16,174 nt of DNA from Candidatus Hermodarchaeota archaeon (GCA_016839365.1 JAEOUH010000037.1:1-16174), one strand, 5' to 3'. Shown: positions 1 through 13,324, counted from the stretch's first letter. Translations and numbers: made by a program. Notes: generated from the letters alone by a model not told the origin.

Positions 1-99
1 GATTTCACCGATGGTGATAGAGAGGATCCCATTGGTGGGCCCATCAACTTCAACGTTGATTGTTTGGTTGTTGATGGTGAGTTTATATTTTCGTGTCAA
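1..99 (-). CDS. Probable biotin carboxyl carrier protein (1.3S/MmdC-like), N-terminal part only; runs off the window edge
   Basis: Not in the ORF track. Manual translation from TTG at 99 gives MTRKYKLTINNQTINVEVDGPTNGILSITIGEI..., resembling the typical stand-alone BCCP N-terminus (M-K-K-Y-K-I-T-V-N-G-x-x-Y-E-V-E-V). GGAG RBS at 112-109. Starts 25 nt after the upstream carboxyltransferase stop. The biotinylation motif (AMKM) is not visible in the window. Confidence 0.75.
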   Translation of the reverse strand, partial: MTRKYKLTINNQTINVEVDGPTNGILSITIGEI

Positions 100-124
100 T
101 TAGGGCTTCTCCACGCTATTTTCT

Positions 125-1636
125 TTAATCATAACCCATAGCTTCTCGGCGTCCAGTAAGCACCCAAGGATTCGATCCATTTTTATTAGAACGACGGATT
201 GTCGGCATCTTCAGCGGTTCAGGCTGCATTTCGAGTAGTGCGGCAGTTATTGCGGCCTGCAACTCAGGAGTAAGCTTGCTTAAGGATTCTTGGTCTTTGC
301 GGTGCTCGAAGAATTCGAGGGCAGGCTGTGGGAAAAGGATGTAAGCGATGATGTCTTCGATATTCGAAGTGATGCCTTTGAGTTCAGCTCGTGCCTTGGG
401 AATTGCAGGTTCTAATAGGTCAGCTGGGCGACAAGTAATTGGCTCTTCGTCGCCGATCACAAGCTTCTGGATTGCTGGGTCAATGGGTGCCGGAGGGCGA
501 CCATAATAGCCACGGACATATTGCTTAACCTCCTCAGGGATTGTCTTATAACGTTCTCCAAGTAACACGTTGAGTGTTGCTTGTGTGCCGACAATCTGAC
601 TTGATGGGGTCACGAGAGGAGGGTATCCCATTTCTTTACGGACAATGGGAACTTCGTCCAGCACGTCTTGTAGGCGGTCTAAGGCGTTTTGTTCACGTAA
701 TTGGTTGACCAGATTCGACATCATTCCACCAGGGACTTGGAATTGCAAGACGTTTGTATCCACCCCCACCATGCCACATTCATATGCTTCATATTTCTCT
801 CGGACATCATGTATGTAAGTAGCGATTTCTGATAAGAGATCAAGATTGAGTTTCGAATCCCAAGGAGTTCCTTGAAGGACCGCTACCATAGTTTCTAATG
901 GTGGCTGGGATGTTGATTGTGCTAACGATGAGATAGCCGTATCAACAATATCGACGCCAGCCTTAATGGCTTCAAGATAGGTCATACTTGCCATCCCCGA
1001 AGTGTAATGAGAGTGCAATTGAATGGGGACACTAATTTCCTCTTTCAGACGGGTAACCAGTTCTCGGGCGATAAATGGGCTAAGGAGGCCCGCCATGTCC
1101 TTAATACATATTGAATCAGCGCCCATTTCTTCCAGATATCTGGTCTGCTCCACGAATGTTTCAACGTTATGAACTGGACTTATCGTGTAGCTAAAACTCA
1201 ACTGTGCGTGAGCTCCTGCCTTATGGATGGCTTTTAGGGCGGTTTGCATGTTCCTAGGGTCATTTAATGCGTCGAAGACCCGGAAGATATCGATTCCATT
1301 TGTAGCAGCGAGTTCAACGAATTTGCGAACCGTATCGTCGGGGTAATGACGGTATCCCACGATGTTTTGGCCCCGTAAAAGCATCTGAAGCTTCGTCTTC
1401 TTGATCGCGGCTCGGAGTTGTCGAAGCCGTTCCCACGGATTCTCCTTCAGAAATCGGAGAGGCGCGTCAAAGGTGGCTCCACCCCAAACTTCCATCGAGT
1501 TAAACCCGACCTGGTCCATTTTCTCAGCGATAGGCAGCATATCCTCGGTTCGCATTCGTGTAGCCAACAAGGATTGATGTGCATCACGAAAAGTGGTATC
1601 TGTAAATTTAATTGGCTTGCTAGAAGCGTACGACAC
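125..1636 (-). CDS. Pyruvate/oxaloacetate carboxyltransferase (transcarboxylase 5S / OadA / PycB-type catalytic domain) lacking a biotinyl domain
   Basis: Motifs DTTFRDAHQSLLATRM, EVWGGATFD, MLLRGQN, FRVFDALND, IKDMAG, LHSH, QVPGGM and GYPPLVTPSSQIVG. No AMKM biotin-attachment domain. Start placed at GTG 1636, 8 nt after GAGGTG (1650-1645); the ORF track uses TTG 1642. Confidence 0.93.
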   Translation of the reverse strand: MSYASSKPIKFTDTTFRDAHQSLLATRMRTEDMLPIAEKMDQVGFNSMEVWGGATFDAPLRFLKENPWERLRQLRAAIKKTKLQMLLRGQNIVGYRHYPDDTVRKFVELAATNGIDIFRVFDALNDPRNMQTALKAIHKAGAHAQLSFSYTISPVHNVETFVEQTRYLEEMGADSICIKDMAGLLSPFIARELVTRLKEEISVPIQLHSHYTSGMASMTYLEAIKAGVDIVDTAISSLAQSTSQPPLETMVAVLQGTPWDSKLNLDLLSEIATYIHDVREKYEAYECGMVGVDTNVLQFQVPGGMMSNLVNQLREQNALDRLQDVLDEVPIVRKEMGYPPLVTPSSQIVGTQATLNVLLGERYKTIPEEVKQYVRGYYGRPPAPIDPAIQKLVIGDEEPITCRPADLLEPAIPKARAELKGITSNIEDIIAYILFPQPALEFFEHRKDQESLSKLTPELQAAITAALLEMQPEPLKMPTIRRSNKNGSNPWVLTGRREAMGYD

Positions 1637-1672
1637 GCACAATACACCTCATAAACAGCGTCTTGGCGAGAT

Positions 1673-1692
1673 AGGAGGTATTTATTCCTCCT
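1673..1692. promoter_or_regulatory. Intergenic hairpin AGGAGG-N8-CCTCCT between the two carboxyltransferase genes
   Basis: AGGAGG (1673-1678) and CCTCCT (1687-1692) are exact inverted repeats around an A/T-rich loop. Function unknown. Confidence 0.4.
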
Positions 1693-1722
1693 CGTTTTTA
1701 GTCTTCTGTCTGTCTAGGCTTC

Positions 1723-3282
1723 CTAAAGTGGGCAGTTACCATGCTTCTTTTTTGGTAATGCTTGTCGCTTGGTACGCAACATTTCTAATGCTGCAATCAC
1801 ACGAGGTCGAGTAACAGCAGGTTCTATAACTTCGTCGATGAAACCACGAACTGCCCCAGAATAGGGATTCGCAAACCTTTCTCTGTATTCTGCGATTCGT
1901 TTCGCCCGAGCAGCCTCTGGGTCCTTCGCCTTCTCAATTTCTCGTCGGAAAATGATGTTTGCTGCACCTTCCGGTCCCATGACCGCCATTTCCGTCGTTG
2001 GCCAGGCATACACCACGTCCGCGCGTAAATGCTTTGATCCCAACACCACATAAGCCCCGCCAATGGCCTTTCGAGTTATAACCGTGACTTTTGGCACAGT
2101 GGCCTCAGCATATGCAAAGAGGATTTTAGCACCGTGTCTAATGATACCACGGTGTTCCTGGTCGACTCCTGGGAGAAACCCAGGGACATCCATGAAAGTG
2201 AGCACTGGAATGTTGAATGCATCACAGAATCGGACAAATCGGGCACACTTATCTGACGCATTAATATCCAAGGTTCCCGCGAGATAATTGGGCTGGTTGG
2301 CAACAACGCCCACTGGATGACCATTCAATCGGATGAATCCTACAACCATATTCTGGGCAAAAAGCTCATGCACTTCTAGAAACTGATGATTATCGGCTAC
2401 GCTCAAAATCGCTTGCTTCATATTGTACGGCGTCGTTGTATCATCAGGAAGCAACTCGTTAAGTGTAGGATCCGTTCTTCGTGCATCATCGGCTGGCTCC
2501 ACTGATGGAGGGTCTTCGACATTATTCGAAGGTAAATAAGAAAGGAGTTCTCGGATGAGTTGCAGGCAGTGCTCTTCATTCTCTGCTGCAAACTGCGCGA
2601 CTCCGCTTTTCACGTTATGTGCCATTGCGCCTCCGAGTTCTTCAAACGAGATGACTTCTCCAGTGACCGACTTGATCACGTTGGGTCCTGTGATGAACAT
2701 GCGGCTAGTATTCTTCACCATGAGCGTAAAATCGGTGACCGCAGGACTATATACCGCCCCTCCAGCACAGGGTCCCATGATGGCACTTATTTGGGGAATC
2801 ACACCCGACGCAATTACGTTGCGATAAAAGATCTCTCCATACGCCCCTAGACTTGCCACGCCTTCTTGAATCCGTGCTCCACCAGAATCATTCAAACCGA
2901 TTACTGGTGCTCCTGCTTCCAGGGCTAGATCCATGATTTTGGTCACCTTTTCTCCAAACATCTCACCCAAGGCGCCGCCAAAAACCGTGAAATCCTGACT
3001 AAACACAAACACCAACCGACCGTCAATGGTGCCATACCCGGTCACCACGCCATCGCCGGGTATCTTCTGTTTATCCATCTTGAAATCCGTGCACCGGTGC
3101 TCTACCAGCGCATCGAACTCCATGAAACTGCCCGGGTCCAAGAGCCGGTCAATCCTTTCCCGTGCCGTCATTTTCCCAGCTTTGTGTTGCTTTTCAATCC
3201 GCTCCTTTCCACCACCAAGTGTGGCTTTTTTCAGGCGTTTTTGGAGTTCTTTCATCTTCTTGTTCATCACATCAGAAGGCAT
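1723..3282 (-). CDS. Acyl-CoA carboxyltransferase subunit (methylmalonyl-CoA carboxyltransferase 12S / propionyl-CoA carboxylase beta / MmdA family)
   Basis: Motifs [64 protein letters not shown] and C-terminal KKHGNCPL. Start moved to ATG 3282 (MPSDVMNKK) with GGAGAG 8 nt upstream. The ORF-track extension to 3372 runs over the promoter region. Confidence 0.95.
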
Positions 3283-3339
3283 ACCAGTTACTCTCCATTT
3301 CAGACAGAATGGTTCCTCTACCGCAGCCACTCCTCTTAA

Positions 3340-3355
3340 ACCCAACCGGTTGGGT
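3340..3355. promoter_or_regulatory. Perfect 16-bp palindrome ACCCAACCGGTTGGGT, candidate operator
   Basis: Read directly and equals its own reverse complement. Lies in the divergent intergenic region and abuts a minus-strand TATA-like TTTAAG (3340-3335). Confidence 0.7.
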
Positions 3356-3379
3356 AAAATCCATGCCCTCAAAAATCAC

Positions 3380-3392
3380 AAAGATTCTTAAC
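3380..3392 (+). promoter_or_regulatory. Putative archaeal BRE/TATA promoter of rubrerythrin
   Basis: AAAGATTCTTAAC ends about 37 nt before ATG 3429. Similar elements sit at similar distances before the genes at 6410 and 6764. Confidence 0.45.
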
Positions 3393-3428
3393 CTAAACCT
3401 GGCTGATACAGTCCGAGGTTAGACCCCA

Positions 3429-4013
3429 ATGTCTAAAACATTAACCGGACTGGTCCAAGCTTTCATCGGCGAAAGCCAAGCCCGTAACAGATACAATATC
3501 TACGCAAAAATCGCGAGAAACGAAGGTTTTGAACAGATCTCTGAAATCTTCGATGTTACTGCTGATAATGAGCGGGTTCATGCCAAGAATTTTTGGCGCG
3601 CTGCCCAAGCAGTCATGAATCAAACTGGCAAACCCATGCCTGAAATCACCGTCGACGCCCTTGCTCCCCTCAAAGTCGGTACAACCGCTGACAATCTTAA
3701 AGCTGCTATCGAAGGTGAAACCCACGAGCACACCAAAATGTACCCTGAAATCGCGGACACCGCTGAAAAGGAAGGCTATATAGAAATCGCCAAACAAGTC
3801 CGTGCCATTGCCCACGCCGAAGTCCATCATGCTGATCGTTACACCGCCTTGCTCAAAGAAATCGAGGCTAAAACTGTCTTTAAGAAAACGAAACCCACCC
3901 GCTGGTTGTGCCGTGAGTGTGGTTACATCCACGAAGGCGACGAACCTCCAGAACAATGTCCTTCCTGTTTCCATGCATTCAAATACTTCCAAGTCCTCTG
4001 TGAAACCTACTAA
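3429..4013 (+). CDS. rbr: Rubrerythrin
   Basis: AFIGESQARNRY; di-iron motifs NERVHAK, GETHE and AEVHH; C-terminal rubredoxin-like WLCRECGY...CPSC. GAGGT RBS upstream. Confidence 0.97.
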   Translation: MSKTLTGLVQAFIGESQARNRYNIYAKIARNEGFEQISEIFDVTADNERVHAKNFWRAAQAVMNQTGKPMPEITVDALAPLKVGTTADNLKAAIEGETHEHTKMYPEIADTAEKEGYIEIAKQVRAIAHAEVHHADRYTALLKEIEAKTVFKKTKPTRWLCRECGYIHEGDEPPEQCPSCFHAFKYFQVLCETY

Positions 4014-4058: not shown

Positions 4059-5456
4059 CTAGTCCCATTCGGAAGGTGGCTCTTGTATTCGGCGTTTCTT
4101 GCCGGAGGCTTCCCATTCAGCCTGGGCTTCTTCTATTGTGTCCCGATAAGCTTTTGGTAGCCGACTTTGAAGTGAGAATCCGCTTTCTTCATCGAGGGCA
4201 TAGGAGAACATGAAGGTGCGATAGGCGGTGTTCAAGGGGCGGAAGATGAAATAGCTCGGAATTGCTGAGAAGATGACAAACACAATGGCGAAGATGATTC
4301 CAATCACTACGGACAAGAAGATATCACTAAAAATGACGATGCCCATGAGATAGCCGAAGAGAAATCCAATCACAATGAAACCAAGCGTTAATAGAGCTCC
4401 AAATAAACTGAACACCGAAGATACGCCGGTCTCGGAAATATACACATCCACAAGCCATTGCCAGGTTAACCGAGCCGATCGTTTGACTGAAGCCACCAGA
4501 CCCCGTTTCTCAATGATTATCGCCGGTAGGGTGAAATAGGTCAGAAAGTAGAATACCGCTCCAATAATCCGACTAGCAATGGCTCCCAGTATCGCAAACA
4601 CCCCTCCTTGACGTTGCCCCCCGCTTTGCGCGGTACTCTGCGCTACAGAAACGGCTGTTCGAACTGCAGCAAACCGAATGATGGTGCCCATAACTCCCCG
4701 AACCTCGTGAGAGGCTCCGGCAAGGTTTGGATCCTGATTTCGATACCAAGTATGGGCGATTGATACGTTGATTCCGTCAAAGATGTAGAAAATTGAGAAG
4801 TAGACGAACAAATAGGGAACTTGCACCAATATAGTCAACGCCCAAAAGATGAGAGACTCAGGGGGGATGCCAATGAGGGGGAGCCAAGTATACATGGCCC
4901 CAAGGGTAGCCATCATGAGAATGCCTGTAAGTAGACTGAACACAGCAGTAACCAGGGGAATAATGAACATCTGCTTTTCCTCAAGTAATAACTGCGCCGT
5001 AAATTCGACCAGTTTGCCAGCGCGTTCAATCTTCTGTCGTCGACGAAACCATATCCATAACTGAATTAGTCCAAAGACTGGAAAGATGAACCCAAACAAA
5101 CCAAAAGGTCCCAAGAACAGGAACATGGCAATTCCAATCACAAACATGAACACGGCTTGAAGCAGCCAAAGCACTCTCAACGTTCCAGCTGCTGCTCTTT
5201 TCATCAAATGAAGAACCAGATAGGCAAGCACTATTCCCAGAAGGATCAAAAACAGGAAAAACCCTGAAATCGCCGGTAAAAAGGTAACAAACCATGGAAA
5301 TGCAAGGAGAATGATCGAAATAATAATCGGAAGAAAAGGTGAAGCGATATAGAAGAGATTGTAGAAACCAAAGCTGTATAGAAGGATTATACCAATCACA
5401 AGGCCTAGAATAGGGCCACGGCCACCACTTGTTTCCTCATACTCGCGATATGACAT
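4059..5456 (-). CDS. Polytopic membrane protein resembling the choline transporter-like (CTL/SLC44/Pns1) and DUF6159 families
   Basis: 465 aa with roughly 10 hydrophobic segments. Segments RQKIERAGKLVEFTAQLL..P, IAHTWY, GASHEVRGVMGTI and FLTYFTLPAIIIEKRGLVASVKRSARL follow the CTL/DUF6159 layout as recalled. The gene is well supported; the family assignment is by eye. Confidence 0.7.
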   Translation of the reverse strand: MSYREYEETSGGRGPILGLVIGIILLYSFGFYNLFYIASPFLPIIISIILLAFPWFVTFLPAISGFFLFLILLGIVLAYLVLHLMKRAAAGTLRVLWLLQAVFMFVIGIAMFLFLGPFGLFGFIFPVFGLIQLWIWFRRRQKIERAGKLVEFTAQLLLEEKQMFIIPLVTAVFSLLTGILMMATLGAMYTWLPLIGIPPESLIFWALTILVQVPYLFVYFSIFYIFDGINVSIAHTWYRNQDPNLAGASHEVRGVMGTIIRFAAVRTAVSVAQSTAQSGGQRQGGVFAILGAIASRIIGAVFYFLTYFTLPAIIIEKRGLVASVKRSARLTWQWLVDVYISETGVSSVFSLFGALLTLGFIVIGFLFGYLMGIVIFSDIFLSVVIGIIFAIVFVIFSAIPSYFIFRPLNTAYRTFMFSYALDEESGFSLQSRLPKAYRDTIEEAQAEWEASGKKRRIQEPPSEWD

Positions 5457-5616
5457 AGGCTACCATATACCACCGTTGTAGTAAAAAAGTTAGCAGGTTC
5501 ACCAATCTTTGAGGCAAAACACCATATTCGAATCTGGAACATGAAATAACTAAGGGTCTTCATAATACCCAAACAGTAATAACCCCCAATTCAGCCAACA
5601 AACCCGGTGACCTACA

Positions 5617-5781
5617 ATGGCACAAAAATGGCAATGTACTGCGTGCGGATATATTTATGACCCTGCAGTCGGTGACCCCGATGGCGGCGTCGAACCTGGT
5701 ACTGCATTCGAAGACATTCCCGCAGACTGGGTTTGTCCGGTATGCGGCGTCGGGAAGGACATGTTTGAGCCGATGGATTAG
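5617..5781 (+). CDS. rub: Rubredoxin (54 aa)
   Basis: Below the ORF-track cut-off. Manual translation [54 protein letters not shown] has the canonical CxxCGYxY...WxCPxCG. GGTGA RBS 6 nt upstream. Confidence 0.97.
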
Positions 5782-5795
5782 CTCGTTAAATGAAC

Positions 5796-5850
5796 ATGGC
5801 GGGGGTAGGCCCCGTATATGGAGTGCCGAAACCGCCGTTTCCTTGTTTTT
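5796..5850 (+). terminator. GC-rich stem followed by a pyrimidine tract downstream of rubredoxin
   Basis: ATGGCGG (5796-5802) pairs with CCGCCGT (5832-5838), with an inner GGG-tagg-CCC hairpin, then TTCCTTGTTTTT. Confidence 0.4.
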
Positions 5851-6083
5851 CGATTAATTGGCTTCTCATTCCGTTCCAGTATTCTTTGAATTTTACGGTT
5901 TCCTGGAAAAGGTGGTTTAAGTGGATTGGAAATAGGGGCTTTGCCTCTTATCTTCCTGTTATTTCCAGGGTTGATTCGATTTCTCCTCTACAGGAATCGG
6001 TTTGGAAGGTGCTCTGGGTCCTTCTAGGCGAGTTCTGGGTTTATTACCTGGTGTGTTAATTCTCCCGCTCAAGAGGTGTCTGT

Positions 6084-6242
6084 ATGAAGACTCAACGATA
6101 TGACCGTTTGAATAATGAAAATGACTTTGACCAGCGAAGAAAAACTGACGAAGAACGCGTCGTTGAAGAAAAGGAACAGAAATCAAGGAAGTACAAGTAC
6201 ATGTGGACCCAGAAAGGTAATCTGGGCAAGGGAGGTATCTAA
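6084..6242 (+). CDS. Small highly charged hypothetical protein (52 aa)
   Basis: Not in the ORF track. MKTQRYDRLNNENDFDQRRKTDEERVVEEKEQKSRKYKYMWTQKGNLGKGGI. GAGGTG RBS 5 nt before ATG, TTTATTA about 38 nt upstream, hairpin plus oligo-T at the stop. Confidence 0.7.
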   Translation: MKTQRYDRLNNENDFDQRRKTDEERVVEEKEQKSRKYKYMWTQKGNLGKGGI

Positions 6243-6283
6243 GAACTCAAGTGTTCTTTTTTACCTCCTTTTTTCTAATTTTT
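6228..6283 (+). terminator. Long hairpin plus T-tracts overlapping the stop of the 52-aa ORF
   Basis: AAGGGAGGTA (6228-6237) pairs with TACCTCCTTT (6262-6271). Inner AAGAAC/GTTCTT stem (6241-6246/6253-6258) with a 6-nt loop. Several T5-T6 runs follow. Confidence 0.6.
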
Positions 6284-6357
6284 CGGTTTCACCTTTAGAT
6301 AGCCTTCTTGGGTTATCTGAATGTGTGTATCTAAAGTGGCTGATGGCCGTTTTCTGT

Positions 6358-6375
6358 GAAAGCGATTCTTTATAG
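6358..6375 (+). promoter_or_regulatory. Putative BRE/TATA promoter of the PC4-like gene
   Basis: GAAAGCGATTCTTTATAG. TTTATA ends 36 nt before ATG 6410, and an AGGTGA RBS follows. Confidence 0.5.
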
Positions 6376-6409
6376 GGTGTATTTTGGTAATGAGAGGTAA
6401 GGTGATTTT

Positions 6410-6712
6410 ATGACGACTGTAGGTGAACCAGTGGCGTTGCCGCGAAGTGAAACCGAAAAAATCTGGGTGTCTCTTTCTGAATGGCAAGGCTTCCTAGGCA
6501 TAGATATTCGAGTTTATTATCAGGCTGGGGAAGCGAGTTGGCGTCCAACCAAGAAAGGAGTCCGCATTTCCTTGGAGCTGAAGGATCAGCTGATTGCGGC
6601 TATCGAGAAGGTGGCCGGGTATGCTGATGATGTAATGGGTGAATCTAGGGGTAAGCCGAAGCCACTTGCGGAGTCTAAAAAGGTAGACGAGGACGAGGGA
6701 GCCGATAAGTAG
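6410..6712 (+). CDS. PC4/p15 (Sub1/YdbC-like) ssDNA-binding transcriptional coactivator family protein
   Basis: IWVSLSEWQG..GIDIRVYY....WRPTKKGVRISL matches the PC4 signature (V..F.G...IDIR.YY...PxKKGI.L). Charged, low-complexity C-terminal tail. AGGTGA RBS. Confidence 0.88.
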   Translation: MTTVGEPVALPRSETEKIWVSLSEWQGFLGIDIRVYYQAGEASWRPTKKGVRISLELKDQLIAAIEKVAGYADDVMGESRGKPKPLAESKKVDEDEGADK

Positions 6713-6763
6713 GAAAACCAAACCGATTTTAAGCTCAACAATGTTAACCTCTCACTGGTAACC

Positions 6764-7039
6764 ATGAAGATTATCGATGACTGCCCTGGCGCTACTCCCC
6801 TCAAACGACCCACCATCATCTTCAAGACCTGCCCACGTTGCGGAGAAGAAGTTGAACTCTTTACGAGTGATGTGAAGATGACCTGTGAGGGTTGTGGGTT
6901 AATCATCTACAACGATACGATGTCCTGCGTGGAGTATTGTGAATACGCCAAAGAATGCGTAGGCGAAGAGATTTACAACGACGTACAGGAAATGATCAAA
7001 AAGAAGAAAGAACAAGAGACCATCAGAAAAGCCGGGTAG
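6764..7039 (+). CDS. Small cysteine-rich metal-binding protein (CPG...CPxCG...CxxCG...SCxxxCxxAxEC), function unknown
   Basis: 91 aa with 8 Cys in a zinc-ribbon/Fe-binding arrangement. TATA-like GATTTTAAG at 6725-6733. Ends 45 nt before desulfoferrodoxin. Confidence 0.82.
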   Translation: MKIIDDCPGATPLKRPTIIFKTCPRCGEEVELFTSDVKMTCEGCGLIIYNDTMSCVEYCEYAKECVGEEIYNDVQEMIKKKKEQETIRKAG

Positions 7040-7084
7040 CCATCAACTTACAATAATCATCTAATCGAATGGTGTAACTTTAAA

Positions 7085-7462
7085 ATGACTAAACTACTTC
7101 AAATCTACAAATGCAAAACCTGTGGAAATATCGTCGAAGTGCTACACGCTGGTGCGGGCTCATTAGTCTGCTGTGGCGCAGCCATGACCCTCATGGAGGA
7201 ACAAACAGCCGACTTCAAGACCGAGAAGCACGTACCAGTTGTGAAAGAAACCAAAGACGGCCTTCACATCGTTGTTGGTTCCACTCCTCACCCAATGGTC
7301 AATGAGCACTGGATTGAATGGATCCAGGTCGTCAAGGATGGTACAATTATGCGCCAATTCTTGGAACCTGGCCAGAAACCGGAAGCCAACTTCCCGATGA
7401 AAGGCAAGCCTGACATGGCACGTGAATACTGTAACATTCACCTGCTCTGGAAGACGAGTTAA
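7085..7462 (+). CDS. dfx: Desulfoferrodoxin (2Fe superoxide reductase)
   Basis: Centre I YKCKTCGNIVEV...LVCCG. Centre II EKHVP, HPM, HWIEWI and EYCNIH. Confidence 0.97.
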   Translation: MTKLLQIYKCKTCGNIVEVLHAGAGSLVCCGAAMTLMEEQTADFKTEKHVPVVKETKDGLHIVVGSTPHPMVNEHWIEWIQVVKDGTIMRQFLEPGQKPEANFPMKGKPDMAREYCNIHLLWKTS

Positions 7463-7980: not shown

Positions 7981-8811
7981 TTATTCATTCATGTCTTCAG
8001 AGATTGAGGAAACCATGTCCCCACTTCGAATATTCAAACGTCCTTCAGCCGTTTGAATGATAAGACTGCCATCTACATCTAATTTCTCTGCCATTCCAGT
8101 GACGTGCCTGTCGCCCATATCAACAGTCACATTCTTCCCAAGGGTTCTGCAGAGGCGTAGATAATGTGGTTTGATAGCTCTGAAACCTTTGTCACGAAGT
8201 ATGACATACCAAAATTCCAGTTGACCCACTAAATACCCGAATAGTCGGGGCAAATCCACCGCGCGATTAAGCTGCTCCTGAAGCGTCGTAACCTTCGATT
8301 GAAGCAAATCCGGGAAATCTCCTAATGTGGAATTAGCATTAATTCCGATACCAATCACAGCGTATTCGATATCGTTACCAATAAAAGCTGATTCGACGAG
8401 AATCCCTGCCACTTTCTGATTATTTAACAATACATCATTTGGCCATTTCAATACGGCTTTTAGCCCTAATGCAGTCTGAAGAACCTTAGCGACCGCTACA
8501 CCTGCTGTCAATGTAATCAACGGGGTTTCATCAGCTCTAATGTTCATTGGACGAACTAATAGAGAAAAATACAGTCCACCAGGTGGTGAATACCACCTGC
8601 GATCTAATCTCCCCACCCCTTCTGATTGCTCATCAGCTAGCACAATTAATCCTTCGCGTTCACCCACCTTAGCTAACGGTTTCAGATACGCGTTGGTTGA
8701 GGGAAGCGATGAAAAATGAAGCAATCGCTTAAAAACTAGTTTTGAGGTATTGCTCAGCGCTTGTTGGAAAAGGTCGTTTCGGGGTTCAAGGGGGATGGGT
8801 GGTTTAGCCAT
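7981..8811 (-). CDS. birA: Biotin--protein ligase (monofunctional, no N-terminal HTH)
   Basis: STNAYLK, ADEQSEGVGRLDRRWYSPPGGLYFSLL, LKWPND, KVAGILVE, VIGIGINAN and an SH3-like C-terminus. Start taken at ATG 8811 (MAKPP); the track uses GTG 8820. Confidence 0.95.
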   Translation of the reverse strand: MAKPPIPLEPRNDLFQQALSNTSKLVFKRLLHFSSLPSTNAYLKPLAKVGEREGLIVLADEQSEGVGRLDRRWYSPPGGLYFSLLVRPMNIRADETPLITLTAGVAVAKVLQTALGLKAVLKWPNDVLLNNQKVAGILVESAFIGNDIEYAVIGIGINANSTLGDFPDLLQSKVTTLQEQLNRAVDLPRLFGYLVGQLEFWYVILRDKGFRAIKPHYLRLCRTLGKNVTVDMGDRHVTGMAEKLDVDGSLIIQTAEGRLNIRSGDMVSSISEDMNE

Positions 8812-8826
8812 ACAACTCACAGTAAG

Positions 8827-9225
8827 CTATTTGGTTGGTTGGCACAATTCTAACAGCACACCGTTGGTGCTTCGTGGATGGATGAAAGCGATACGCATAT
8901 TTCCAGCACCCATTCGTGGTGTTTCATCGATTAACTGGAATCCCTGAGCTTTCATCTTAACTAGCGTGACCTCGATATCATCCACTTCAATAGCGATATG
9001 GTGGATGCCTTCACCACGCTTTTCGATGAACTTTGCCACAACACCATCAGGACTCGTCGATTCAAGTAACTCGATACTGGAATCGCCAACTGGAATGTGA
9101 ACCGCTTTGACCTTCTGGTTTTCGATAATTTCAATACTTGAAGGCTCTAATCCGAGGACCTCTTGATATATTTTGAGAGCCTCATCAGCATCCTTAACTG
9201 CAATTCCTATGTGAGCAATGCGCAA
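8827..9225 (-). CDS. mce: Methylmalonyl-CoA epimerase (VOC superfamily)
   Basis: HIGIAV, IELLE, KFIEKRGEGIHHIAIEV, IAFIHPRSTNGVLLEL; metal ligands H/H/E present. TTG start with GGAG upstream. Confidence 0.95.
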   Translation of the reverse strand: MRIAHIGIAVKDADEALKIYQEVLGLEPSSIEIIENQKVKAVHIPVGDSSIELLESTSPDGVVAKFIEKRGEGIHHIAIEVDDIEVTLVKMKAQGFQLIDETPRMGAGNMRIAFIHPRSTNGVLLELCQPTK

Positions 9226-9336: not shown

Positions 9337-10581
9337 ATGCAACCCACTGAGGGTCGTGAGCAGGAAAATATGGGCGAGAAACCCCCATTAAATTCCAATC
9401 TTTTGATTATTTTTAGTACAACCCTCATTGCAGTCATGGGTGTTGCAAGTATAACTCCGGCGTTTCCTGCAATGAGTATTACTCTTAGTGTTCCCCCTGG
9501 CATGATCAGTCTTGTTATCATCGTATTCACACTCCCCGGAGTCATCCTTACCCCTTTTTTAGGGGTGGCTGCAGATCGATATGGTCGCAAACGAGTGTTG
9601 GCTCCCTCTCTGTTACTGTTCGGAGTCGCTGGATTTGCTTGTGCGTTTTCTGAACCCCTAGGGCTTCTATTGGGGGCATCGCCATTTTTCATGCTGCTGA
9701 TTCTTCGAGTCTTTCAAGGGGTTGGGGCAGCCTCTCTTGGTTCACTTAATGTCACAATCATTGGCGATTTGTACCACCGCCAGCAGCGCACACATGTGAT
9801 GGGTTACAATGTAAGTGTACAAAGCATTGCAACAGCCATTTATCCCACGCTCGGTGGATTCTTGGCGCTTTTCGCCTGGTATTTCCCCTTCTATCTCCCG
9901 TTGCTAGCCATCCCGGTTGGTGTGGCCGCACTAATCTGGCTTAGTGTGCCAAAAGCTGAATGTCTCCTAACCCTACGCGAATATTTCGGGCAAATCTGGC
10001 ATATTCTCAAAGATCGACAGGTAGCTGGTTTGTTCATTATAAGTACAGCAATTTTCGTCATGCTATATGGAGCTATTATCACCTACCTACCCTTTCTTCT
10101 AATCTCTGCGTTTTTGGTCGACTCATTCATTGCTGGGATTGTCGTGTCTTTCATATCGGTTACTTCAGCTTTTACAGCCTTCTTAGTAGGGAATCTGATT
10201 CGAAGGTACTCCATGAAGGGCTTGTTGATGGCTGCATTTCCCTTTCAGGCGTTTGGCTTGTTCCTCATTCCCTTCGCACCTCATCTACTGATTATCCTCA
10301 TTCCAGTTGGGTTGTTTGGAGTGGGCATGGGATTGGCTATACCCACGACCCAAAACCTCCTTGTGAATCTAGCCCCAATGGAGAACCGAGCGGCGGTCAT
10401 GTCGCTAAACGGACTTGTTCTTCGATTAGGACAAACATTAGGTCCTCTTATGATGGCGGTCGTTCTAAGCGCCTTGGCACTTCCTGGAGTCTATTTCATA
10501 GGAGCCTTGATTGCACTGGCACTCATCCCAGTAGTCTTTCTAACAGTACCATCCCTGAACCGGTCTATGAAAGAACGCTAG
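9337..10581 (+). CDS. MFS transporter (DHA1-like)
   Basis: MFS motif [13 protein letters not shown], motif B LRVFQGVG, and about 12 hydrophobic segments. Start uncertain (GTG 9322, ATG 9337 or ATG 9370). TTTTTA at 9305-9310 favours 9337 or later. The stop overlaps the mutase stop (CTAG 10578-10581). Confidence 0.92.
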
Positions 10582-12251
10582 AAGATTTGTGGGGCCTTGT
10601 ACTCACCAAAAACTGAGCGTAGACTATCGCATATCTCACCTAAGGTTGCATGGGCTTCAACTGCTACAAGGATGGGAGTGAAGAGATTATTCATATCCTC
10701 TGCAGCTACTTTGAGATTATTTAGTGCTGATTCTACCCTTGTTGCATCCCGGGATTGTTTAAGGGCTGCCAGTTTCTTGGCTTGCAGGTCCTCGACAAGC
10801 GGGTCAACCCTTAGGTAATCAATAGTGCGTTCCTCTTCAGGGATTTCAAATTGATTAACACCAACCACTACCCTTTCACCAGTTTCAATTTCGCGTTGAT
10901 AACGATAGGCACTGTCATGAATTTCGCGTTGAATGTAACCTGATTCAATGGCTCGCAGGACGCCACCCATTTTATCGATTTGTTGAAGGTACTTCTCAAC
11001 TCCCTCTTCAATCTCATTAGTAAGATTTTCCAAGAAATAGGATCCAGCGAACGGATCAATGGTGTTTGCAGCACCAGTTTCATGGGCAAGGATTTGTTGA
11101 GTGCGGAGTGCGATGGTTGCGGCTTTTTCAGTTGGGAGGGCAAGGGCTTCATCCATAGAGTTGGTGTGAAGAGATTGGGTTCCTCCCAGCACAGCAGCTA
11201 GCGCCTGCATCGTGACTCGTACAATGTTATTCTCTGGTTGTTGAGCAGTAAGACTACAACCAGCAGTTTGCGTATGAAAACGCAAGAGCCATGAACGCGA
11301 ATCCTTTGCATTATACCGTTCTCGCATAATCTTATACCACAATCGACGAGCAGCCCGGAATTTCGCAATCTCCTCGAATAGATCATTATGGGCTCCAAAG
11401 AAGAAGGAGAGCCGTGGGGCAAACTCATCGACCTGGAGCCCCGCATCAATGGCGGCCTGCACATAAGCTATGCCATTGGCAAATGTGAACGCTACTTCTT
11501 GGATGGCGGTACTACCCGCTTCACGGATATGGTAACCACTAATACTGATAGTATTCCACGAGGGCAGCTCTTCGCGACAATACGCGAAGGTATCAGTGAT
11601 TAATCGCATGGAAGGTTTAGGTGGGTAAATGTAAGTTCCACGGGCCACATATTCTTTGAGAATATCGTTTTGAATCGTACCACGCAAAACCTTAGGATTA
11701 ATCCCCTGTCTTTTGGCAATCACAATATACATCGCTAGTAAGACTGCTGCGGGGGCGTTGATTGTCATGCTTGTGCTGACCTTTTCGAGAGGAATATTCT
11801 GGAAGAGAATGCCCATGTCTTCAACAGATGGGATGGAGACGCCGCATTTGCCCACCTCACCTGCAGCCATTGGATGGTCTGCGTCATAACCGATCTGAGT
11901 TGGTAAATCAAAGGCTACACTGAGCCCGGTTTGTCCCTGCTTGAGGAGGTACTGGTAGCGTTCATTGGTCTGTTCAGCATTACCGAATCCTGAGTACATG
12001 CGCATGGTCCATAAGCGTCCCCGGTACATCGTGGGATACACACCACGAGTATATGGAGATTCACCAGGAAATCCTAAGTCCTGTTGATAGTCAAATTCAG
12101 GAAGGTCTGCTGGTGAATAAAGTCGTTTGACGGGTTTACTGGAGGTAGTCATAAACTGGTCAGCCCGTTCGGGGGCTGTTTTTAAATAAGGTGTAAGGAC
12201 ATTCACCTCCCAATCATCATACGCTTTCTTTACTCGCTTCTTTTTGGACAC
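10578..12251 (-). CDS. mcmA: Methylmalonyl-CoA mutase, large (substrate-binding) subunit of the split form
   Basis: [69 protein letters not shown] and [10 protein letters not shown]. No DxHxxG B12-binding domain. GGTGA RBS 6 nt before GTG. Confidence 0.95.
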
Positions 12252-12272: not shown

Positions 12273-12815
12273 CTACATCTCCACACCTTTACGCGCTGCG
12301 ACTCCCTTCTGATAAGGATGCTTTACTTCCCTCACCTCACTGACAAGATCTGCAAGTTCAATAATCGAAGCGGGTGCATAGCGACCCGTCAGGACCACTT
12401 CCATATGGGCGGGACGGGATTCAATTAGCGCAATGACCTCCTGTTCCGTAACCAATCCGAAATCCATTGCCACATTCACTTCATCAAGAATAAGAAAGTC
12501 AACGGTCCCTATTTCGATTATCTCACGAGCATGATTGAGGGCTTCTTTTGCCAACTTGACATCTTTGGGGTCTGGCTTCGATTTGTCGACAAAGTCTGGA
12601 CGACCAAATTGTCGAATCGTGAAGTTGGGTATGTGTTTAACAGCGTTTATTTCTCCATAGTTAATCTGCCCTTTCATGAATTGAATCATGTATACTTCAA
12701 AGCCATGGCCAGCTGCACGTAGCCCCAACCCTAATGCGGCAGAGGTTTTTCCCTTTCCAGAGCCGGTATACACCTGTACCAAACCTTGGTGACCGGATTC
12801 TTTTCTATCCTTCAT
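12273..12815 (-). CDS. cobO: Cob(I)alamin adenosyltransferase, CobA/CobO/BtuR type
   Basis: VQVYTGSGKGKTSAALG, IQFMKG, ILDE, EVVLTGR, ADLVSE and KHPY..G..ARKGVE. Alternative start GTG 12824 overlaps the HIT stop. Confidence 0.95.
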   Translation of the reverse strand: MKDRKESGHQGLVQVYTGSGKGKTSAALGLGLRAAGHGFEVYMIQFMKGQINYGEINAVKHIPNFTIRQFGRPDFVDKSKPDPKDVKLAKEALNHAREIIEIGTVDFLILDEVNVAMDFGLVTEQEVIALIESRPAHMEVVLTGRYAPASIIELADLVSEVREVKHPYQKGVAARKGVEM

Positions 12816-12820
12816 TGCCT

Positions 12821-13324
12821 TCACTTTGATGTGAGAATCTCCAAGTGGGGGGCTAGCCGTTGATAGGTTGTTTCTGCATTCATGACCAAGGTCCGTGTGT
12901 CAGCGGTGGTTTCCATGAAGCCTAGTTCTCGGGGATAGCGTGGCACGATATGCAAATGGAGATGCAAAATACTGGCCCCTGCAGCTGAACCAATATTTAG
13001 TCCCATGTTCACACCCGTTGGGTTGAAGGCTTTTTGGACGAGTTTTACTGTTTTAGCACCCATCCAGAAGAAGGCGTTTGTCTCCTCCTGAGTTAACTCC
13101 GAAAGCTTCACCACATGCCGAATGGGAACAACCATCACATGACCCGGATTAAAAGGAAACATATTGAGAAGGACCAAGAATTGATCATTACGGTAAACGA
13201 TTTTGGTTTTCACCTTCGGGTGGCCTTCGATTATGGCACAGAAGATGCAGGGAATTTCATGGCGTTCCCGCCCCTCTATATACGCTAGTTTATGCGGGGC
13301 TGCAATGTAATCTCGGAAGGGCAC
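12821..13324 (-). CDS. HIT family nucleotide hydrolase/transferase (Ap4A hydrolase/phosphorylase-like)
   Basis: CIFC, LNMFPFNPGHVMVVP.RH and GLNIGSAAGASILHLHLHIVPR (histidine triad). AGGAG RBS about 10 nt upstream of GTG. Confidence 0.93.
   Translation of the reverse strand: MPFRDYIAAPHKLAYIEGRERHEIPCIFCAIIEGHPKVKTKIVYRNDQFLVLLNMFPFNPGHVMVVPIRHVVKLSELTQEETNAFFWMGAKTVKLVQKAFNPTGVNMGLNIGSAAGASILHLHLHIVPRYPRELGFMETTADTRTLVMNAETTYQRLAPHLEILTSK

Follow-up and report, generated by a model that had tools for sequence, protein, structure and literature searches.

A predicted ATP-independent methylmalonyl-CoA:pyruvate transcarboxylase in a Hermodarchaeota archaeon

Introduction

The transcarboxylase of Propionibacterium freudenreichii subsp. 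shermanii (PDB 1on3, 1rqb, and 1dcz) combines two carboxyltransferases, 12S and 5S, with a separate biotin carrier, the 1.3S subunit of about 123 amino acids, and it has neither a biotin carboxylase (BC) nor a pump. In the holoenzyme of propionyl-CoA carboxylase (PCC; PDB 3n6r, 7ybu, and 6ybp), a PccA chain with BC, BT, and BCCP domains is bound to a PccB hexamer; the 3n6r structure has a helix that threads the BT barrel and a hook that contacts PccB. Homologous carboxyltransferases and a biotin carrier are also found in the Na+-pumping decarboxylases (OadABG and MmdABCDE), and in two-subunit pyruvate carboxylases (PycA/PycB of methanogens; Methylobacillus flagellatus, PDB 5ks8) the biotinyl domain is part of the PycB chain (577-626 amino acids, AMKM), which needs PycA for its function. 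Here we describe a contig of 16,174 bases from Candidatus Hermodarchaeota archaeon (GCA_016839365.1, JAEOUH010000037.1), referred to below as the window, which is the entire contig C4. Three genes at its left end are predicted to encode a methylmalonyl-CoA:pyruvate transcarboxylase (EC 2.1.3.1).

Transcarboxylase genes have been named as conserved in Asgard archaea (Imachi et al., 2020; PMC7015854), and a methylmalonyl-CoA carboxyltransferase was stated for every Hermodarchaeota genome by Zhang et al. (2021; PMC8163825), whose table names the genes on contig h03m_104_k127_2026471, which is our locus L008. A sequence-only reading of the window had called the enzyme one that is characterized in bacteria. 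This is correct, yet the archaeal prediction had already been published in the two papers. Our literature search found no characterized transcarboxylase, and no biochemistry of one, from any archaeon. The metabolic inference is thus already published from genomes, and the subunit architecture is a variant of a known transcarboxylase. What is added here is class-wide evidence that there is no ATP module or pump, a correct assignment of two neighboring mutases, and the structural idea that the holoenzyme may follow the docking plan of PCC rather than the 1.3S plan of Propionibacterium.

The Locus and Its Continuation on a Second Contig

The host genome comprises 2.2 Mb in 93 contigs and is 83.7% complete. 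Its genes include one for ribosomal protein S8e, whose family had matches in the four archaeal control genomes and in no other control. The closest named relatives of the genome are metagenome-assembled genomes (MAGs) of Hermodarchaeota. The host is an Asgard archaeon, and the archaeal origin proposed from the sequence is thereby upheld.

The genes encoding a 12S-type subunit, a 5S-type subunit, and the start of the carrier lie on the minus strand of positions 1-3372, separated by gaps of 80 bp (12S/5S) and 25 bp (5S/carrier). The sequence-only reading had described three co-oriented, closely spaced genes for an acyl-CoA carboxyltransferase, a keto-acid carboxyltransferase with no biotinyl domain, and a probable stand-alone biotin carrier, and had seen no biotin carboxylase gene in the window. 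The open reading frames (ORFs) and the domain matches given below agree with it on each of these points.

The carrier gene runs out of the left edge of the window and continues on contig C5. Window positions 1-392 reappear in reverse complement as bases 1-392 of C5, with six mismatches: one is intergenic, and in the 5S gene four fall at third codon positions and one at a first. This pattern fits strain variation at an assembly break. The assembly broke inside the 5S/carrier junction, probably owing to such variation, and the operon is for this reason divided over two contigs. On C5 the carrier is followed by a gap of 363 bases and by genes encoding an acyl-CoA mutase large subunit (564 amino acids), a B12-binding small subunit (132 amino acids), a MeaB GTPase (324 amino acids), and then electron-transfer flavoprotein genes. 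The sequence-only reading had advised a search beyond position 1 for an AMKM motif in the carrier and for oadB, mmdB, or accC. The motif is there, as EAMKM; none of the three genes is, and the mutase, the B12 subunit, and MeaB are found in their place.

The joined order, a divergent rubrerythrin gene followed by 12S-5S-carrier-mutase-B12 subunit-MeaB, is found on one contig in H03M_Hermod_104, where the 5S protein is 89% identical, and in seven of eight class genomes read. Because eight related Hermodarchaeota loci each have this order on one contig, the join of C4 and C5 is sound. In a ninth related locus, L093, the carrier ORF is not among the ORFs listed.

The Three Subunits

The start of the 12S-type protein was placed at the ATG at 3282 on the basis of the homologues and of a GGAG about 10 nucleotides upstream; the reading frame is open to 3372. 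The protein covers the entire Carboxyl_trans profile (668.7 bits, E 6e-201), its GG-A motifs are invariant across the aligned homologues, and the genome has no other Carboxyl_trans gene. Among PDB sequences it scores 723 bits against PccB of T. maritima (1vrg) and 601 bits against the P. shermanii 12S subunit (1on3), and it reaches 874 bits with TIGR01117 (mmdA), which is under the cut-off of 998.8. The residue at the position of D422 in S. coelicolor PccB is valine, and in P. shermanii 12S it is leucine. This position was considered as a substrate indicator and rejected, P. shermanii 12S and T. maritima PccB being hydrophobic there too.

A Pfam scan finds no Biotin_lipoyl domain in the 5S-type protein, and no second full PYC_OADA gene occurs in the genome. 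Its motifs for the metal and carbamyl-lysine site, RDAHQS, KDM, and HxH, do not vary among 24 homologues. Its PDB scores are 536 bits with PycB (5ks8_C), 523 bits with OadA (2nx9), and 458 bits with the transcarboxylase 5S subunit (1rqb). The only model that it passes is the domain-level NF006761 (770 bits, cut-off 402); it misses both the 5S equivalog NF008984 (559 bits, cut-off 827) and the oadA model TIGR01108 (718 bits, cut-off 756.5). Some class-mates have open frames of up to 733 amino acids, which raised the possibility of a 5S-carrier fusion. This was rejected by reading eight class loci: a stop codon follows ...AGRREAMGY(D/E) of the 5S protein in all eight, and seven have a separate carrier ORF, while none is listed for L093.

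The complete carrier has 193 amino acids, and its Biotin_lipoyl domain (residues 127-192, 67 bits) is the only match to this family in the genome. The EAMKM motif does not vary in the aligned homologues, and Lys159 is invariant in 21 of them. In the eight Hermodarchaeota loci where a carrier ORF was found it is encoded by a gene apart from that of the 5S subunit. The features discussed here and below are collected in Table 1.

Table 1. Coordinates of the transcarboxylase-type genes and of related features, in the window unless contig C5 is given.
Feature	Position	Strand	Basis
Biotin carrier, first 33 codons	1..99	-	ORF leaves left edge; remainder G000:C5 294-875
5S-type pyruvate/oxaloacetate carboxyltransferase, 505 amino acids	125..1642	-	Pfam HMGL-like and PYC_OADA
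5S C-terminal tail, residues about 452-505	125..289	-	Ala/Leu-rich segment, spacer, then NPWVLTGRREAMGYD
12S-type acyl-CoA carboxyltransferase, 519 amino acids	1723..3282	-	Pfam Carboxyl_trans
Intergenic region between the divergent 12S and rubrerythrin genes; presumed promoter region	3283..3428	.	Direct reading; promoter function inferred
Biotin-protein ligase, BirA catalytic type, no repressor domain	7981..8820	-	Pfam BPL_LplA_LipB and BPL_C; TIGR00121 184 bits, cut-off 83.1 exceeded
Methylmalonyl-CoA epimerase	8827..9225	-	TIGR03081 153.9 bits, cut-off 114.95 exceeded
Predicted methylmalonyl-CoA mutase catalytic subunit	10578..12251	-	Pfam MM_CoA_mutase 767.8 bits; signature residues Tyr (P. 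shermanii Tyr89 position) and Arg (Arg207 position), motif AFDLPT
ATP:cob(I)alamin adenosyltransferase, CobA type	12273..12824	-	Pfam CobA_CobO_BtuR 219 bits; TIGR00708 179.6, cut-off 167.75 exceeded
Acyl-CoA mutase large subunit of the operon (locus L088)	C5 1239..2933	+	Phe (Tyr89 position) and Gln (Arg207 position), motif AFHLPT

Gene Content and Predicted Activity

The class was surveyed in 19 Hermodarchaeia genomes. PYC_OADA was found in 17 of these and Carboxyl_trans in 18, and the 12S and 5S genes adjoin wherever the contigs permit. No class genome has a match to Biotin_carb_C, the family that marks 13 of 14 reference genomes used as a control, and OAD_beta is likewise missing in all 19. 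The window's own genome, within its degree of completeness, has no match to Biotin_carb_C, OAD_beta, or OAD_gamma. Its two weak matches to CPSase_L_D2 (ATP-grasp) are to SucC and to an ATP-grasp protein of generic type, which reaches 30-36 bits with accC models (cut-offs near 600). The genome search for biotin carboxylase and OadB that had been suggested with the sequence-only reading thus finds neither, in this genome or in the class.

Since sequence similarity alone cannot decide the type of enzyme, it has to be decided by gene content. With two transferases, one carrier, no means of ATP loading, and no membrane subunit for discharge, carboxyl transfer is the sole known chemistry left. The three genes therefore most probably encode an ATP-independent transcarboxylase, with methylmalonyl-CoA and pyruvate as the predicted substrates; the flux direction is likewise a prediction. 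The 12S-type subunit would pass the carboxyl group of (S)-methylmalonyl-CoA to biotin on the single carrier, and the swinging biotinyl domain would hand it to the 5S-type subunit, where pyruvate would be carboxylated to oxaloacetate in an overall reaction that should be reversible. The BirA protein of the window would biotinylate the carrier.

The relationships of the 5S-type proteins were studied in a careful maximum-likelihood tree of 80 homologues, which is unrooted and in which the context labels depend on how far the loci extend. The Hermodarchaeota sequences form a clade (100/100) inside a group (96/90) that also includes Thorarchaeota, Chloroflexota, Acidobacteriota, and a small number of further sequences. 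The loci of these other members have a 12S gene, a carrier downstream, or both, and in no case OadB. The sequences with an OadB context are all found in a separate group (99/96), and a third group holds methanogen PycB with fused biotinyl domain together with most of the transcarboxylase-type sequences from Bathyarchaeia. On the 5S side, the phylogeny called for by the sequence-only reading thus places the Hermodarchaeota protein in a different supported group from the OadB-context sequences. That reading had inferred an archaeal transcarboxylase, which gains support from the AMKM carrier, from the lack of oadB and accC, from the class-wide absences, and from the 5S tree.

In the Bathyarchaeia loci L016, L019, and L042, the gene order is epimerase-BirA-12S-5S-carrier with a Tyr-type mutase gene convergent downstream, and L019 and L042 have a second carrier-like gene upstream. 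The 5S proteins of these three loci group with methanogen PycB and not with the Asgard sequences.

Pathway Genes and the Two Mutases

Genes encoding an epimerase, BirA, a mutase of the Tyr/Arg type, and an adenosyltransferase all lie inside the window, in the space of 13 kb, and succinyl-CoA synthetase is encoded on contig C77. This set fits a route between propionyl-CoA and succinyl-CoA. Together with the epimerase, the Tyr/Arg mutase, the adenosyltransferase, and succinyl-CoA synthetase, the predicted transcarboxylase would interconvert propionyl-CoA and succinyl-CoA, the carboxylation taking place without ATP. Class-I fumarase is encoded in 15 of the 19 class genomes, as is the flavoprotein of succinate dehydrogenase/fumarate reductase, about 2 kb from the fumarase gene, and malic enzyme is found in 17.

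The large subunits of the two acyl-CoA mutases, one encoded in the window and one after the carrier on C5, are 63% identical. Their signature positions were placed by alignment to the methylmalonyl-CoA mutases of P. shermanii and human and to HcmA. Isobutyryl-CoA mutase has Phe80 and Gln198, and the Phe/Gln pair goes with substrates that have no free carboxylate. The Phe/Gln pair of the operon mutase and its AFHLPT motif are conserved in all nine class-mates examined. Since the window copy, beside the adenosyltransferase, has Tyr and Arg at these positions while the operon copy has Phe and Gln, the window copy is, judged by its signature residues, the true methylmalonyl-CoA mutase. A tblastn search of the genome found just one B12 subunit and one MeaB.

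Alternative Readings

Several observations weigh against a transcarboxylase of the methylmalonyl-CoA:pyruvate type. The 5S-type protein is more similar to PycB and OadA than to P. shermanii 5S, and the 12S-type protein is more similar to PccB than to P. shermanii 12S, so that similarity does not separate the functions; the NCBIfam equivalog cut-offs are all missed. The 19 class genomes are all MAGs and are 72-91% complete, which limits what their absences can tell. Judged by its two signature residues, the operon mutase is probably an isobutyryl-CoA-type enzyme and not a methylmalonyl-CoA mutase. Malate dehydrogenase of the Ldh_1 or Ldh_2 type is found in none of the class genomes, so the cycle is not the textbook one, and the genome has no CoA-transferase of the AcetylCoA_hyd_C type. 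With these enzymes missing, neither a full Wood-Werkman cycle nor a full route of syntrophic propionate oxidation is evident, which matches a remark by Imachi et al. (PMC7015854).

The same enzyme might act mainly on alkyl-substituted malonyl-CoA, with the operon mutase processing alkylsuccinyl-CoA that originates from alkylsuccinate synthase (Zhang et al., 2021). Alkylsuccinyl-CoA would then be rearranged and decarboxylated, and its carboxyl group would be passed to pyruvate or propionyl-CoA, regenerating fumarate. PMC8163825 assigns the carboxyltransferase and the mutase of an orthologous contig to such a role; the Phe/Gln residues speak for it in that the operon mutase is not a standard methylmalonyl-CoA mutase, and the Desulfoglaeba ass cluster (supplement of PMC8163825) encodes a mutase that, when read by eye, has the same two residues. 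However, a PFL-like glycyl-radical enzyme is missing in the genome itself and found in nine of the 19 class genomes, the most complete one (91%) not being among them, while the 12S/5S pair is found in 17-18 of the 19, and the role can therefore not be general. Moreover, the epimerase and the Tyr/Arg mutase of the window serve the ordinary methylmalonyl-CoA route, and the same type of operon is found in Thorarchaeota, Bathyarchaeia, and Chloroflexota. We consider this use of the enzyme unlikely. It is very improbable that the genes instead belong to ordinary ATP-dependent propionyl-CoA and pyruvate carboxylases that share one carrier, their biotin carboxylase being encoded in unassembled DNA. 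The 12S protein is nearest to PccB, the 5S protein is nearest to PycB, the carrier resembles the BT-BCCP part of the PCC alpha subunit, and a genome that is 83.7% complete leaves room for a missing gene; but the same absence would have to be repeated in all 19 class genomes when Biotin_carb_C is detected in 13 of 14 controls, and the ATP-grasp matches that do exist are accounted for by SucC and by a generic protein far below the accC cut-offs.

The alternative that the sequence-only reading itself had named is a hybrid sodium-pumping decarboxylase, with a single carrier serving both an MmdA-like and an OadA-like subunit. Exactly such a set exists in Bacillota, where locus L036 has the order mmdA-oadG-carrier-oadB-oadA-like. 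Here, no OAD_beta is found in the class and no OAD_gamma in the genome, the genes that follow beyond the left edge encode the mutase, the B12 subunit, and MeaB, and the Hermodarchaeota 5S protein falls outside the supported group that holds all OadB-context sequences. A sodium pump at this locus is accordingly the faintest of prospects. The Bacillota clusters (L036 2281-7407; also L028, L059, L061, and others) are worth noting on their own account. Their 5S proteins have no biotinyl domain, L036 served as a positive control with 544 bits for OAD_beta and 56 bits for OAD_gamma, and the clusters look like a sodium pump with two carboxyltransferases, one carrier, and one membrane subunit.

The Carrier and the Possible Assembly of the Complex

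The methylmalonyl-CoA:pyruvate transcarboxylase predicted here resembles that of P. shermanii in having two carboxyltransferases of the same folds and a separate carrier, with neither biotin carboxylase nor pump, and the biotinyl domain of the carrier matches the 1.3S structure 1dcz. It differs in that the biotinyl domain of the carrier, a protein of 193 amino acids, is preceded by a BT-type barrel of eight strands and by a Pro/Ser/Thr linker, that no part of the 1rqb chain matches the 5S tail in sequence, and that the 12S and 5S proteins are closer to PccB and to PycB/OadA, respectively. The composition of the Propionibacterium enzyme, which the sequence-only reading had recognized in the three genes, therefore holds for the folds of 12S and 5S and for the separate carrier, but not for the type of carrier, which is BT barrel plus BCCP instead of 1.3S. 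The trio would work like a transcarboxylase without belonging to the Propionibacterium family at the level of orthologs.

Compared with the PCC holoenzyme, the 12S-type subunit is PccB-like and the carrier has the BT-BCCP order; unlike PCC, the class has no biotin carboxylase domain, and a separate 5S-type carboxyltransferase is found in its place. The Na+ decarboxylases share the homologous carboxyltransferases and the biotin carrier (the 523 bits of the 5S protein being to the OadA domain of V. cholerae), but OadB/MmdB and OadG are missing here, and the 5S protein has a long tail and belongs to a separate tree group; this holds for the mixed clusters of Bacillota as well. The best 5S match is to PycB, and methanogen PycB genes also adjoin BirA. 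However, the carrier is here encoded by a gene of its own, and PycA is absent.

In the carrier family (21 sequences, alignment A1), a Pro/Ser/Thr linker joins a conserved N-terminal domain to the biotinyl domain. In an AlphaFold model of the carrier, residues 1-88 form eight strands (pLDDT about 85), residues 89-122 are disordered, and residues 126-193 form the biotinyl domain. When the N-terminal domain alone was searched with Foldseek, the matches down to rank 47 were exclusively BT domains of propionyl-CoA, methylcrotonyl-CoA, and acetyl-CoA carboxylases. It aligns to human PCC (7ybu_A) with a TM score of 0.76 and a root-mean-square deviation (rmsd) of 2.4 Å over 86 columns, and to Methylorubrum PCC (6ybp) with a TM score of 0.74 and an rmsd of 1.9 Å. 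With the whole carrier as query, about 192 columns align to the PCC alpha subunit, with a high rmsd and the two domains not separated. As modeled, the carrier corresponds to a PCC-type alpha subunit without the biotin carboxylase, with BT barrel and BCCP alone. Its first strand is of the K-Y-x-L-x-I-N type, which presumably resembles the N-terminus of 1.3S. Our literature search for a BT-domain carrier in a transcarboxylase gave no paper, only an evolutionary survey from 2011 that sets transcarboxylases aside. The fused bacterial proteins L029 and L055 were used for a Rosetta-stone check, and their biotinyl domains alone align to the carrier.

The central BT helix, which PCC has on the chain of its barrel, is missing from the carrier; if the complex here has such a helix, the 5S tail would have to provide it. 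The tail of the window 5S protein reads LTPELQAAITAALLEM ... NPWVLTGRREAMGYD. Most 5S proteins of transcarboxylase-type loci, from Hermodarchaeota, Thorarchaeota, Bathyarchaeia, and Chloroflexota, have a tail of 45-90 residues that ends in a conserved W..(G/A/N)R, and Trp493 is invariant in alignment A2, while the OadB-context 5S proteins of Bacillota have no tail. No match of the tail to PDB sequences was found at E values up to 10. By analogy with PCC, the 5S tail might supply the BT helix and the hook in trans, and the 5S subunit and the carrier are probably anchored on a 12S core of the PccB type through the 5S tail and the BT-type barrel. When a complex of 12S (the scored partner), 5S tail residues 450-505, and carrier residues 1-95 was predicted, the median was 0.31 against a mark of 0.32, which weighs neither for nor against docking, and the 12S monomer may poorly represent the hexamer.

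It is quite possible, if somewhat short of probable, that these features together describe a transcarboxylase built on the PCC plan. A PccB-like hexamer would then be combined with a BT-BCCP module, the biotin carboxylase being replaced by the 5S subunit, and the BT domain would be split, with its helix and hook on the 5S tail and its barrel on the carrier. Such an arrangement would be common to Hermodarchaeia, Thorarchaeia, Bathyarchaeia, Chloroflexota, and Acidobacteriota.

Other Genes in the Window

The rubrerythrin gene (3429-4013, plus strand) is divergent from the 12S gene, and its position is conserved across the class. A desulfoferrodoxin gene is found at 7085-7462 (plus strand). Both are oxidative-stress genes of anaerobes, and they are interspersed among the genes of the methylmalonyl-CoA pathway.

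Positions 4059-5456 (minus strand) encode a polytopic membrane protein of 465 amino acids. Its sole Pfam match is PF04515, the mainly eukaryotic family of plasma-membrane choline transporters, at E 3.9e-6 and 26.7 bits against a cut-off of 26.9, with the full profile spanned. No such gene is found at the corresponding position of the Hermod_104 locus L008. The following 1.6 kb or so (5457-7085) has short ORFs alone (66-100 amino acids); the three of them that were scanned gave no NCBIfam match, and the region has no Rfam match. An Rfam scan of the whole window gave zero matches.

Two class-mates have an additional gene between 12S and 5S. In L096 (6153-6815, minus strand) it encodes a protein with a zinc ribbon and an RDD-family membrane domain according to Pfam, and an ORF in L091 (2551-3132, plus strand) looks by eye like the L096 insert. 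The 12S/5S gap of the window has no inserted gene of this kind.

Biological Implications

If the predicted activity is correct, these anaerobic Asgard archaea would be able to interconvert propionyl-CoA and succinyl-CoA with no ATP cost for the carboxylation. This bears on whether such organisms ferment to propionate or oxidize propionyl-CoA derived from amino acids and odd-chain compounds, and on the published proposal that the Asgard archaeal ancestor fermented to propionate. If the PCC-plan build is also correct, there would be a widespread second transcarboxylase architecture, and carboxylases and transcarboxylases would be interconverted by the swapping of modules.

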